From assembly GCA_947630865.1 (NCBI GenBank), contig CANRJE010000001.1:1-54734 (forward strand): a DNA stretch of 54,734 bases. Reading direction: 5' to 3'. Both the position numbers and the translations under genes were made by a program. Positions 29,896-48,069 of the stretch are shown piece after piece; position 1 is the stretch's first letter, and each line of letters starts with the position of its first letter. The notes under the pieces were generated by a model. It did not search any database and was not told the DNA's origin. It was given only the letters and a program-made list of their open reading frames with translations. Source of the DNA: an uncultured Bacilli bacterium (GTDB lineage: Bacteria; Bacillota_I; Bacilli_A; RF39; UBA660).

Positions 29896-29940
29896 GAAAA
29901 GAGAAAAAGCAAAGAAAATCTCTTATGAAATCTTTGCTTT
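29896..29940 (-). terminator. intrinsic terminator after the LCP gene
   Basis: Minus strand reads AAAGCAAAGA-(15 nt)-TCTTTGCTTT followed by TTCTCTTTTC. The stem starts at the stop codon. Confidence 0.55.
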
Positions 29941-31232
29941 TATGGATTGTTTTTTGAAGAAGTACTAGAATCAGTACCAGTATTAGTATTTCCTGAAGTT
30001 TCAGCCTCAGTACCTGGAGGAGTTGTTTCAGAACCAGTTGTACTTCCACTTCCTGTTCCTGAACTATCTCCACCATCTGGATTTCCAGGGTTAGGATCAG
30101 TTGGATCAGGACTTGTTTCTCCTGGAGTTGGTTCAGTAGGATTATCTGGATCAGTTGTTGGATTATTAGGATCGATTGGATTCCCTTCTTCATCTAAATT
30201 AGGATCATCTTCTAAATCTGGATTTTCTTCTTCTAAATTCTCATCTGGTTCTTCCTCTTCTGGTTCTTCTTTAGGTGGCACATAAACATGAGGAGTATTA
30301 ACCCAACCACTTGTATTTTCTTGATAACTACTGTCAAGTATCTTACCATCAAACACATCTTTAATAGCTTCCATAGCAGCATCTATCGTTTTTTGATCTG
30401 GCTCCATAACATATTTTTTTATAGTTGGAAATACACTCGAATAGTTTTCACTATCAAAACCATCTAAACTAATTGAAGTAAAATTCCATTTAGGCATTTT
30501 ATCAATCTGCAATTTAATAATTTGTAACATTTTTTCTGATGATAAATTCGTAATAAATTTACCATTAACAGATTCTAATAATGATGAATATTTTGTTAAA
30601 ATAGCTGGAGAAGTTGCTTTTTTAACAACTGCTTGGATTAAGGCTTGTTGATTTTCTCCTCTTGCTCTATCTCCACCTTTTAATACTTTCCTTGTTCTAA
30701 CAAACTCTAAAGCCTGTTTACCATTAATTCGATTATATCCCTTTTCAAAGTAATAATCATAATCAACCGTTCTAAAAGTATATTTGGAATAAACATCTAC
30801 TCCACCTAAAGCATTAACAATATCAACTACAGACATAAAATTAACTTTGAAGTAATAATTTATATCAATTTGCAATAAATCTTCAATAGTTTTAACTGTC
30901 ATCTCTGTTCCATATAAACCAGAATGCGTTAATTTATCACGATTTTCTTGACCATGAAGTTTAACATAATAATCTCTTGGAATATGAATCATTAGTATTT
31001 GATAAGTTTTAGGATTAACAACTACAACAATATTAACATCACTTCTCGTAATTGAAGTAATATCTCCAGCATTATCCATACCAGATATTAAAACAATAAA
31101 AGGATCTTTAGTAACATCAATATCTTTAGTAAAATCTTCTATATCTTCTTTTAAAGAAAACTCATAAATAATTGTATATTTATCTTCAATTGTATCGTCT
31201 TCTTCTGAAATTAATTTATAATCATCTTCCAT
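29940..31232 (-). CDS. LytR-CpsA-Psr (LCP) family catalytic domain with a Pro/Asp/Glu/Thr/Gly-rich C-terminal tail (3-prime part of an interrupted gene)
   Basis: PFIVLISGMD...RSDVNIVVVVNPKT..ILMIHIPRDYYV is the LCP core. No signal peptide or TM helix is present in this ORF. It is in frame with the upstream ORF across a single TAA. Confidence 0.8.
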   Translation of the reverse strand: MEDDYKLISEEDDTIEDKYTIIYEFSLKEDIEDFTKDIDVTKDPFIVLISGMDNAGDITSITRSDVNIVVVVNPKTYQILMIHIPRDYYVKLHGQENRDKLTHSGLYGTEMTVKTIEDLLQIDINYYFKVNFMSVVDIVNALGGVDVYSKYTFRTVDYDYYFEKGYNRINGKQALEFVRTRKVLKGGDRARGENQQALIQAVVKKATSPAILTKYSSLLESVNGKFITNLSSEKMLQIIKLQIDKMPKWNFTSISLDGFDSENYSSVFPTIKKYVMEPDQKTIDAAMEAIKDVFDGKILDSSYQENTSGWVNTPHVYVPPKEEPEEEEPDENLEEENPDLEDDPNLDEEGNPIDPNNPTTDPDNPTEPTPGETSPDPTDPNPGNPDGGDSSGTGSGSTTGSETTPPGTEAETSGNTNTGTDSSTSSKNNP

Positions 31233-45452: not shown

Positions 45453-45574
45453 ACAATCACCTAACTTCATTATAAATTTTTTTACCTATTATTGCAAGTA
45501 AGATATAAAAAAATCTAATATTTTTTCATACTAGATTTTAATAATTTACAATTGGTACAGAAATTTTATTTTGA

Positions 45575-45600
45575 TTGTCTCTCCTAAATCGGAGAGACAA
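45575..45600. terminator. perfect 10-bp hairpin downstream of the surface-protein gene
   Basis: TTGTCTCTCC-taaatc-GGAGAGACAA. The T-rich tract (TATTTTGTTG) follows on the plus strand only. On the minus strand it is followed by TCAAAATAAAATTT. Confidence 0.4.
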
Positions 45601-45662
45601 TATTTTGTTGAGATATCTTACTTCTTGCTTTATTATTCCCTTTACTTTATTCTTTATCGGGT

Positions 45663-45688
45663 CCCTCGAAGACGTTCCCTTCGTAGGG
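45663..45688 (-). other. GC-rich hairpin 6 nt after the stop codon of the 791-aa gene
   Basis: Gene-sense CCCTaCGAAG-ggaacgt-CTTCGAGGG (9 bp, one bulge). No U-tract follows. Confidence 0.5.
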
Positions 45689-45693
45689 ATATC

Positions 45694-48069
45694 TTACGCC
45701 TCCAAGATGTATGGGTCTGTGTCAGTCCCTGTCCCGGATTTAATCTTCACATGTGACCCCAGATTAAGGACTGGGAAGGCCCCCCCACCGCCAATCCAGC
45801 CGACGTATCTGGCCTCCACATAATTCCCGAAGTTCCAACCCATCACATTGCTGCTGCCGTCAGAAGAAGGGGCGAGCATCCACAAATATTTACTCTTTAC
45901 CTCCGGCATTGTTCTATACATCCAACTTGTATATCTTAAATGTTCGTAATCTCCAGAACCTAACGATGTATTCCAATATTGTTTATCTGCTGAGAATCCA
46001 TAGTCACTTGGATACATTAATGAAATACTTCCTTTCCAAGTGGCATCATTTCCATTCCATACATTACATCCTGATACAGGGAAATTTGATGAACTACTTG
46101 TTGTTCCTTTGTTATCTATACAATTTAATACATCTCTTTCGTGTTGGTATCCACTTACTGCTGTATCTGTAGCAATTATAAAACTTCCTAAATAATGTAT
46201 TCTTTCTTCTAATAAACTTTTTGTTGATTCACTTAAAAGTCTCATATAATATCCATTTAAATAATGTTGAAGCCCTGCTGTTGCCCAATCATTATTTGAT
46301 GTTCCACTGACTTTATTGTTCCAATATACATTTTCTCCAAAAGATATTTTATAGTCTATTCCATTAACTACTATTTCGCTAGTAAGAACATCGGCAGGTA
46401 ATGCTTCATTTCGAACTAATCTTATATACTTTTCTTTTGTTTCTTCGTCCGTAAATACTCCTATTATTCTCCATAATTCTTTTTGATTATTATTTGTTAA
46501 TTGAACATAATTTCTGACATATTCTCCTGTATATCTATATTCTTTGCAATTTGAATCACATACTGTTCCTTTCTCTGGATTTATTCCATATATTCCTTCA
46601 TATGCACTTGATACTTTTTGAATTAAATCATAAGTTGCTAAATATGTAACTCTAACAGAAAAAGTTGCAGAAATTTTATTATAAGAACTATCATCTGGTA
46701 TAAAGTTTATATTAATATTTGTATTTCCAAGAGAATGGCCTGTAACTGTAACCATCGTTTGATTTCCTTTACTTGGACTAACTATTGCTGTTGCTATTTC
46801 AGAACTATCAGATGTTACAGAAAATGTTCCTGATGTATTGGTATCTACATTAAATGCAGTTTGCTGATTTGGTGATACTTCACCACTTGTCCTACTTAAA
46901 TATATTTTTGTTTCTTTATCGCCAGTATCTTCATATACTAATTCATATGGTGTATCCAAACTTCCATTTCCTTTGGTAATCAAAACCATTGATTTTAAAG
47001 AAAGGGTTGCTCTTGCTCTATTACCATTGTAATTAGCATGATTATTATATAAATATCCTGTTTTACTCCATCTTGAAACATCATTAGTTAAAGTATATGT
47101 AACTGGTGATAAAAGCCATTCATGATTACTATGATTTGCAGCTTGCAACCAACTTGAATTAGCAACTGTTCCTTCAAATGTTCCATATCCTAATATTGTA
47201 TTCCAATATTGGCTATCAACACTATAACCTATATCACTTGGATATAATAATCCAACTTTACCTGTCCACGTTGCTGCCTTATCTGCCCATACTCGACACG
47301 TTTCATTTCCTACTACAGCACTTTGAGTACTATTACTACTTGGTCCTTTATTATCTTGGCATCCACTTACTGCTCTTTCATTTTTATAGGCTTCGCTTGG
47401 GTTATCCTTAATGTAAGATGTGTCATCATAAGTTACTGAACCTAAATAATATTTCGTATCAGCTATCATTGATTGATATTCTTCATCTATAGTTTCTAAA
47501 AAGCCTTCTCCCACTGCTCCTTCAGAGTTTAACCAGGCTTTTAATCCTGCTGTTGCCCAATCATTTGTATAGGTTGAACTATAATTATTCCAGTATACTA
47601 CACTTCCATTAGTAGATAAAGTATATGATGTACCATTTGCTGTAAAAGTAGTTGGTACTCCTGTTAAAGTTTCATTTTGCACTATTTTAACTGTTGTCTT
47701 TCCCCCATCTTTAAATACTCCTACTATTCTCCATAATTGATTATTAAACTTAACATAATTGTTAACATTCAAGCCTGAATATCTATATTCTCTTATATTT
47801 CCATTGTTAGTAGTTGTCATTTGATTATCTCTTGTAACTCCTACTACTCCTCCTTCTTGTCCAAGTGTATTTTGTACAACTTTAGCTAAAGAATTTTCTG
47901 GTAAGTCTTCAGGCATTTCTGATGCTGTATGTATCTCAACTACATTATCAAGCTTAACTGATGTTTGAAATAAAGAATATGATACATTTACTCCTATTGT
48001 TAAAACACTTATCAGTACTAATATTACTAAAATTTTCTTATTTACTGCTATTTCCTTTTTTAAATCCAT
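45694..48069 (-). CDS. large secreted/surface protein with an internally duplicated ~300-aa domain and a central Ig-like (Big_2-type) domain
   Basis: - 791 aa.
- The N-terminal anchor/signal ends in VSYSLFQT.
- The two repeats share motifs: EYRY(S/T)G..V.NYV, LWRI(V/I)GVF, YWNN, NDWATAGL, YYLGS/HYLGS, C.DNKG, ATW.G...L.YPSD.G(Y/F)S.D.QYWNT, W(L/M)L(S/A)P and D.PY.L.
- The middle segment SGTFSVTSDSSEIATAIV...VTVTGHSLGNTNI is Big_2-like. Confidence 0.8.
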   Translation of the reverse strand: MDLKKEIAVNKKILVILVLISVLTIGVNVSYSLFQTSVKLDNVVEIHTASEMPEDLPENSLAKVVQNTLGQEGGVVGVTRDNQMTTTNNGNIREYRYSGLNVNNYVKFNNQLWRIVGVFKDGGKTTVKIVQNETLTGVPTTFTANGTSYTLSTNGSVVYWNNYSSTYTNDWATAGLKAWLNSEGAVGEGFLETIDEEYQSMIADTKYYLGSVTYDDTSYIKDNPSEAYKNERAVSGCQDNKGPSSNSTQSAVVGNETCRVWADKAATWTGKVGLLYPSDIGYSVDSQYWNTILGYGTFEGTVANSSWLQAANHSNHEWLLSPVTYTLTNDVSRWSKTGYLYNNHANYNGNRARATLSLKSMVLITKGNGSLDTPYELVYEDTGDKETKIYLSRTSGEVSPNQQTAFNVDTNTSGTFSVTSDSSEIATAIVSPSKGNQTMVTVTGHSLGNTNININFIPDDSSYNKISATFSVRVTYLATYDLIQKVSSAYEGIYGINPEKGTVCDSNCKEYRYTGEYVRNYVQLTNNNQKELWRIIGVFTDEETKEKYIRLVRNEALPADVLTSEIVVNGIDYKISFGENVYWNNKVSGTSNNDWATAGLQHYLNGYYMRLLSESTKSLLEERIHYLGSFIIATDTAVSGYQHERDVLNCIDNKGTTSSSSNFPVSGCNVWNGNDATWKGSISLMYPSDYGFSADKQYWNTSLGSGDYEHLRYTSWMYRTMPEVKSKYLWMLAPSSDGSSNVMGWNFGNYVEARYVGWIGGGGAFPVLNLGSHVKIKSGTGTDTDPYILEA

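Follow-up and report, generated by a model that had tools for sequence, protein, structure and literature searches.

We propose that the 3' end of a gene on contig CANRJE010000001.1 of an uncultured Bacilli bacterium (assembly GCA_947630865.1) is a target of a diversity-generating retroelement (DGR). The stretch analysed, hereafter the window, is the whole contig of 54,734 nt; the gene occupies 45694-48069 on the minus strand, encodes 791 amino acids and closes with a sharp G+C-rich island. Very probably this island constitutes a DGR's 3' target module, made up of a 111-nt variable region (VR), the adenine-free G/C-rich end of that region, a short coding tail and a GC-rich hairpin, all on the minus strand. 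That the segment 45766-45876 is a VR of DGR type is a point on which our confidence is high. We also lean towards a VR that is active at present or was so until recently, with a cognate template repeat (TR) and reverse transcriptase (RT) deduced from relatives and from the DGR paradigm.

The contig has 25.3% G+C overall, and its 220-nt segments average 25.3% with a standard deviation of 4.8%. The highest of them all falls on the island, with 55.9% at 45658, about 6.4 standard deviations above the mean. A first-pass annotation, made by reading the sequence alone, had singled out this place by hand counts, which we reproduced: 45661-45880 holds 121 G+C in 220 nt (55%), with 35% in the in-gene flank (45901-46020) and 26.7% in the outer flank (45601-45660). 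The reported figure of about 20 adenines proved to be exactly 20 in the 123 nt encoding LAPSS...NLGS, and the almost pure G/C run described there is present as GGCGGTGGGGGGGCC at 45778-45792. The island is composite: an A-poor core (45766-45876) is followed by a GC-rich, non-A-poor 3' coding tail (45694-45765) and by the hairpin. The core has 59.5% G+C, and its coding strand carries 15% A vs 40.5% in the remaining gene.

The codons of the core, already noted as odd in the first-pass annotation, are set apart from those of the rest of the gene. G+C at third codon positions (GC3) amounts to 67.6% in the 37 core codons vs 13.5% in the other 731 (Fisher p = 6e-13), and third-position A is found in 2/37 vs 351/731 (Fisher p = 6e-8). 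Glycine is written GGC, GGT or GGG inside the core and GGA in the remaining gene; for valine, the choice is GTG or GTC inside and GTA or GTT elsewhere. Codons ending in C or T make up 26 of the 37, next to the two ending in A, and this is the NNC/NNT excess expected of randomised AAC/AAT codons.

Such a patch might in principle be a by-product of amino-acid content, that of a loop rich in Gly, Ala and Ser, or reflect an overlapping structured RNA or another non-coding element. In favour of this are the abundance of Gly in the segment (GGGG) and the fact that RNA genes often account for GC-rich islands in AT-rich genomes. However, the signal sits at synonymous third positions, and the protein carries an internal control: its two halves are 37% identical (E = 3e-50, BLASTP self-alignment), the homology extends through the island to the stop codon, as had been proposed, and the equivalent segment of the first half has 29% G+C. 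Amino-acid content is thus not the cause of the island. A structured RNA was likewise rejected as its cause, no Rfam family having a match anywhere in the window. The synonymous-site test effectively refutes this explanation, and we give it next to no weight.

The only other G+C bump of the window, 43.6% at 29965-30221, is ordinary and not DGR-like. It encodes the low-complexity C-terminal tail, rich in Pro, Thr, Gly, Asp and Glu, of a LytR-CpsA-Psr family protein (29940-31232, minus strand).

Two readings of the island had been put forward in the first-pass annotation, a DGR variable region and a patch acquired from a higher-GC homologue. The first is supported by islands in relatives, by the cassettes adjoining them, by TRs that align to the same segment, by adenine-specific changes and by the predicted fold. 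Among the 95 homologues found for the target gene, P0008 (locus L123), P0016 (L124) and P0013 (L125) carry a 3' island of 52-63% G+C on contigs of 25-27% G+C. All of them switch from AT-rich to GC-rich codons at one common site, directly behind the Trp of W-x-L-[SA]-P-S-S, and the GC-rich codons end at L-[NYF]-L. In the paralogue-like homologues tested, P0002 and P0003 (GCA_947629135.1), there is no island.

DGR cassettes stand beside several of these islands. In L123, the target is followed by an open reading frame (ORF) of 119 aa with weak MutS_I similarity, by bAvd (Pfam E = 3e-4) and by an RVT_1 reverse transcriptase that runs off the end of the contig. The island of L128 adjoins MutS-like, Avd and RT genes; that of L130 adjoins a MutS-like gene, a 96-aa ORF, a TR and an RT frame broken by a stop. 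All three cassette genes are complete in L126, which starts directly behind a VR, as is typical of assemblies broken at a repeat. Its Avd matches the NCBIfam model DivGenRetAVD with E = 2.5e-8, at 34 bits and so under the model's 80-bit cut-off, and its RT bears the GxxxSQ motif. About 150 nt after this RT lies a TR of 111 nt (~1953-2063) with runs of AAC (...AATGTGAACAACAACAACGTGAACAACAACAACGGTGTTCGCCCA...), whose translation, LLSPSSNDPDNVANWNAGNVNNNNVNNNNGVRP, is the same segment as the island of the window.

The TR of L130 (901-1002) can be compared directly with the VR of the same locus (344-447): besides two small indels they differ by 19 substitutions, and 18/19 fall on TR adenines. The AAC-rich TRs of L126 and L130 both align to exactly the island segment, so that the window segment is homologous to a VR with a verified TR (L130) as well as to the TR of L126. 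Because the L130 pair differs in an adenine-specific manner and cassettes and TRs lie beside the islands, we consider on comparative sequence grounds that DGRs diversify the family in precisely the segment to which 45766-45876 is homologous.

The bounds of the window VR (45766-45876; aa 732-768, LAPSSDGSSNVMGWNFGNYVEARYVGWIGGGGAFPVL) were set by homology to the TR/VR pairs of relatives, and it could be aligned codon by codon with the VRs of L123, L124, L125, L128 and L130 and with the TRs of L126 and L130. It counts 37 codons vs 35 in every relative examined, and the conserved V-R-P of the family reads A-F-P. At its 3' end lies an adenine-free, G/C-rich run of 20 nt, GGCGGTGGGGGGGCCTTCCC (45773-45792), which includes the run given above. 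The VRs and TRs of relatives end in an equivalent A-free, G/C-rich stretch, GGYGTKCGNCC. By analogy with the Bordetella phage BPP-1 paradigm, we infer that the run is a candidate element akin to the initiation of mutagenic homology (IMH).

We propose the following course of events. The genes for a MutS-like protein, for Avd and for an RT of ~320 aa would lie, together with the TR, in a cassette at another place in the genome. The TR would be transcribed, and the RT would make cDNA from it, misreading template adenines, after which the cDNA would replace the VR. AAC or AAT codons of the TR would thereby become NNC or NNT in the VR, while all non-adenine positions would be reset to the TR sequence. 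The cognate TR should then measure ~110 nt and take the form CTCGCCCCTTCTTCT-(AAC/AAT-rich)-...GGCGGTGGGGGGGCCTTCCC. Its invariant positions must avoid A, and its randomised positions would settle at ~50% G+C. In a coding strand with 40% A and a genome with 25% G+C, constant positions free of A together with randomised codons would yield an A-poor, GC-rich island with sharp edges.

Downstream of the VR, the gene ends with a tail of 23 codons and the stop (45694-45765), outside the TR-homologous stretch of relatives; in L130 and L126, TR/VR homology stops at the CTT of the L-N-L motif, before the tail. The tail has 48.6% G+C, a GC3 of 61% and 32% A, and the tails of relatives show the same G+C elevation in a weaker form. 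It may carry conserved DNA-level signals, or else the whole 3' module is a fairly recent transplant. The tail also contains a perfect 10-nt palindrome, TCACATGTGA (45747-45756), 9 nt 3' of the VR end; relatives do not share it, and it is probably due to chance.

The GC-rich hairpin that had been noticed past the stop codon exists (45662-45689), though with a different geometry: it starts 4 nt after the stop instead of 6, and its stem has 11 pairs and a bulged A instead of 9 bp. More precisely, 5 + 6 pairs flank the single bulged A on the 5' arm and enclose a 5-nt loop (GAACG). Its stability is modest, with -7.9 kcal/mol as DNA and z ~-2 vs shuffles. A stable hairpin is found right after the stop in 4/6 VR-bearing relatives: those of L123, L128 and L130 share its build, in which a single bulged base of the 5' arm separates an outer from an inner stem, and differ in sequence, and that of L126 is a 15-pair stem with no bulge. 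The post-stop region of L124 folds no better than shuffles, and that of L125 lacks a GC-rich stem. About 60 nt beyond the GC hairpin, a terminator scan located an AT-richer, terminator-like hairpin (45574-45601), probably the real transcript end. This separate hairpin suggests that the GC hairpin is not simply the terminator. By analogy with known DGRs, it is possible that it serves as a target-recognition hairpin or cruciform.

Other small elements were seen near the relatives' modules. L123 has extra small GC hairpins with GNRA-like loops at 2860-2970 (CTCGCC-GTAA-GGCGAG and CTCGCC-GCAA-GGCGAG), and the motif AGCGAAGCGAAG is common to L128 (1040-1075) and L130 (525-545), between the target gene and the cassette.

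The second reading, a recombination or gene-conversion patch from a higher-GC homologue unrelated to any DGR, draws on the look of a block replacement: the foreign codon usage runs past the VR, through the stop and up to the hairpin. Yet homologues from several AT-rich genomes have the island too, placed at the identical codon, and it can be aligned with bona fide TRs. Cassette genes of the relatives have 18-24% G+C, the TRs 45-46% and the VRs 51-65%. With cassette genes this AT-rich, the high G+C is intrinsic to TR and VR and implies no GC-rich donor; searches of phages, plasmids, IMG/VR and JGI metagenomes gave no closer nucleotide match and hence no donor. Moreover, A depletion combined with an NNC/NNT excess is specific to DGR rewriting. 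The strong form of this proposal is therefore not needed, and we judge it improbable. In a weak form it may hold, if the whole 3' module, including the unrewritten tail and the hairpin, was grafted from a cassette-linked paralogue.

This idea can be carried further, in a speculative vein that we think rather unlikely to be correct. The entire GC-rich 3' block (VR, 23-codon tail and hairpin) could be a portable target module that recombination transfers to paralogous DUF6273 genes, so that one chromosomal MutS-like/Avd/RT cassette would diversify several dispersed surface proteins. The window gene would then be a recent recruit, with only the last of its two tandem domains converted. A VR of 37 codons where relatives have 35, and a tail not yet drifted to the AT-richness of the host, would fit recent recruitment.

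The absence of RT, Avd and TR from the window, stated in the first-pass annotation, was confirmed by tblastn for RT and Avd and by repeat searches for the TR; tblastn revealed no MutS-like gene there either, and blastn at word size 7 no second copy of the island. With no cassette within 54.7 kb, either the target lies far from its cassette or it is an orphan. The sibling genome GCA_947630495.1 offers a parallel that speaks for the DGR reading, its VR-bearing target (L124) and its cassette (L126) sitting on different contigs. The Asn-rich equivalent of the VR in the first domain (YLYNNHANYNGN) was considered as an internal TR and discarded, since at the nucleotide level it does not resemble the VR and its DNA is of the ordinary AT-rich kind.

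Several results weigh against a DGR target. Searches for the cognate TR covered the window, IMG/VR, JGI metagenomes and phage and plasmid records, not the other contigs of the genome, and are no proof of absence. Within this scope, no repeat differing from the VR in an adenine-limited way was found in the window, codon-aware patterns for three parts of the VR found no cognate TR in IMG/VR or in JGI metagenomes, and blastn gave no match to the island among phage and plasmid records. In the genome collection, the TR pattern was made fully adenine-degenerate (G->R, C->M, T->W), a form that poly-A runs satisfy and that is for this reason uninformative: the matches listed were all poly-A runs (42,041 pattern positions in fetched loci). 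The TRs recovered from L126, L130 and L131 belong to relatives in the family and are not cognate to the window VR. The same is true of the RT homologues L126, L128, L129, L131 and L132, whose TRs, where present, are not cognate to it. A protein database of 5.8 billion clusters holds a single sequence of the 791-aa protein, its next homologue being 38% identical; no copy from a second strain was found there. The tail is GC-rich as well, though retrohoming should leave it unrewritten. Finally, the hairpin is barely more stable than shuffles and departs from the BPP-1 type: it has no GRNA tetraloop and ~76 nt separate it from the end of the VR, whereas in that type a stem of 7-10 bp with a 4-nt GRNA loop stands 4-34 bp from the VR (PMC3240598).

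Part of this evidence bears less on the identity of the module than on its activity. An orphan or relic VR would be the same DGR-derived module, no longer rewritten by any cassette in the genome, either because the cassette was lost or because the module was acquired from a cassette-linked paralogue through recombination and has never had a cassette to serve it here. RT, Avd, the MutS-like gene and the TR are all missing within 54.7 kb, and a GC-rich tail is what a transplanted whole module would show. In the sibling genome, the remote VR of L124 does not match the TR of L126, the only one recovered there. The RTs of relatives are often disrupted, by an insert resembling a group II intron in L129, L132 and L133, by a stop in L130 and by truncation in L127. 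The odd length of the window VR and its A-F-P in place of V-R-P point the same way. On the other side, a GC3 of 68%, a third-position A content of 5% and the sharp 5' edge would erode under the strong AT bias of a genome with 25% G+C unless recently reset or acquired; the reading frame and the predicted fold are both intact, and good documentation exists for remote targets served in trans (PMC5758913). Overall, we regard a relic as a real but less favoured possibility. The sharp edge, third positions not drifted towards host AT-richness and the intact frame and fold speak for a VR still, or until recently, rewritten.

The target protein begins with a hydrophobic anchor or signal, followed by two tandem C-type-lectin-like domains of DUF6273 type with a linker between them. 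The first domain (aa ~86-377; 46939-47814, minus strand) is supported by BLASTP self-alignment, and the second (aa ~502-789; 45703-46566, minus strand), which bears the VR at its C-terminal end, by an AlphaFold2 model and structure matches. Pfam recognises DUF6273 in the first domain only and below threshold, with 16 bits against a gathering cut-off of 23.5 (E = 0.011). Since this score is sub-threshold and the structural matches to DUF6273 proteins are significant, we call the protein DUF6273-like, short of membership at the Pfam level. The VR-equivalent segment of the first domain does not resemble the island in nucleotide sequence and is no DGR target.

We modelled aa 500-791 with AlphaFold2 from 36 aligned domain sequences. 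The model is confident, with a predicted local distance difference test (pLDDT) score of 90.9. Its top PDB match is the N-terminal C-type-lectin-like domain of T. ramosa IgAse (9qa6, E = 4e-8), described as an enlarged C-type-lectin-like domain resembling the C-terminal domain of Legionella Lcl (PMC12237041); the top viral matches in Foldseek are DUF6273 phage proteins. The predicted fold is thus of the DUF6273 / C-type-lectin-like type (PMC12237041, PMC10743442), which agrees with the C-type-lectin fold suspected earlier. The VR corresponds to residues 233-269 of the model and includes a beta-hairpin with strands 242-246 and 252-256 at pLDDT ~89-95. Placed at aa 732-768 of 791, it sits where a DGR target is expected to vary, at the 3' end of the ORF and within a predicted C-type-lectin fold. 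DUF6273 is itself a published DGR target domain of C-lectin type, with a C-terminal variable region (PMC10743442, PMC11792537).

Two further observations concern the protein family. At the N-terminus (47980-48069 in the window) and in homologues, a basic stretch and a hydrophobic helix precede the motif G-x-[ST]-[YF]-[AS]-L-[WF], and homologue P0065 has a prepilin-type N-methylation domain (PF07963) there instead; these sequence features suggest export via a specialised signal-peptidase or pilin-like route. The second observation concerns P0022-P0062, two-domain proteins of 837/838 aa from ENA metagenomes. Near-identical otherwise, they differ chiefly where the first domain has its equivalent of the VR, as in ...SLEDYYRRTVSSFYVNNQGVSDMYVCGMDSGKQIFP... 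vs ...SITSDAWKRISSFYIYNHGIGHTEVCGSSGGKQIFP..., a pattern that could reflect DGR diversification or recombination of an internal domain.

The window protein shares its domain family with known DUF6273 targets, namely the phage 'tentaclins' or tgt2 proteins (PMC10743442) and the Faecalibacterium prophage targets (PMC11792537). It also resembles them in having the VR at the C-terminal end of the domain, with a surface beta-hairpin in our model, and in the AAC-rich TRs of its relatives. Unlike them, it is chromosomal and not in a phage, its neighbours in the window being housekeeping genes (RsmE, an MtaB/MiaB-like enzyme, L28, LigA and PcrA). Further differences are a tandem pair of DUF6273 domains, only the second of them a target, and a cassette that is not adjacent. 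Like Mtd of Bordetella phage BPP-1 (PMC3240598), it combines a VR at the 3' end of a C-type-lectin-fold gene, a G/C-rich A-free VR end and a GC-rich hairpin after the stop codon; the hairpin departs from that of BPP-1 in its bulged 5 + 6 bp stem, its 5-nt loop and its distance from the VR.

One cassette can serve scattered chromosomal targets, and remote targets are typical of non-phage DGRs (PMC5758913). A target without a cassette within 54.7 kb is in this respect comparable to the TvpA DGR of Treponema denticola and other remote-target DGRs, although the Treponema remote VRs, unlike the window VR, are tied to their TR by adenine-only mismatches (PMC5758913). The closest parallel to the cassettes of relatives is the MutS-like (MSL) class with avd of Wu et al. 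2018, documented in DGRs and including one MSL in a Legionella DGR (PMC5758913). As in that class, relatives carry a target, a MutS_I-like ORF of 119-122 aa, Avd, RT and TR, and the MutS_I motif is fused to the RT in L131, as the survey reports for a few RTs (PMC5758913). The window itself, by contrast, holds none of these cassette genes, the MutS_I similarity of the relatives' ORF is weak, and the host lineage here is a group of uncultured, Firmicute-like metagenome-assembled genomes with 25% G+C.

Judged from its sequence, this otherwise nameless protein of a very AT-rich uncultured bacterium is marked as a putative hypervariable ligand-binding protein, surface-bound or secreted. In AT-rich genomes, a DGR VR can be recognised by composition alone, as a sharp-edged, A-poor and GC-rich patch at the 3' end of a gene. 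Such a flag works even after assembly has split the VR from its cassette, where finders of TR/VR pairs fail. The case adds a chromosomal, non-phage and unlinked target to the DUF6273 class; otherwise it is an ordinary example of a well-described system.

The cassettes of relatives display some traits of their own. A conserved ORF of 119-122 aa stands beside avd or the RT gene in L123 (3032-3391), L126 (154-513), L130 (1221-1589) and L132 (300-668), and corresponds to the accessory genes that Wu et al. 2018 class as 'MSL' (PMC5758913). Its similarity to MutS domain I is weak (Pfam E = 0.027), and the MutS_I call comes partly from motif reading. In L131 (1325-2293), the MutS_I match falls on the C-terminal part of the RT instead.

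In L129 (1360-2155), L132 (1710-3600) and L133 (1640-2436), the DGR RT gene is split within the codons of the catalytic YMDD motif by an insert that opens with GTGCGAC and looks like a group II intron. The insert of L132 contains a 431-aa ORF with RVT_1 and a faint GIIM (maturase) match, and the RT frame resumes beyond it. Many RT homologues in the database end at 245-251 aa, the same spot as the intron split. In L127 (827-4836), a truncated DGR RT of 245 aa is directly followed by three tandem tyrosine-recombinase genes, which look like a recombinase-trio element inserted at about the intron's point in the RT gene.

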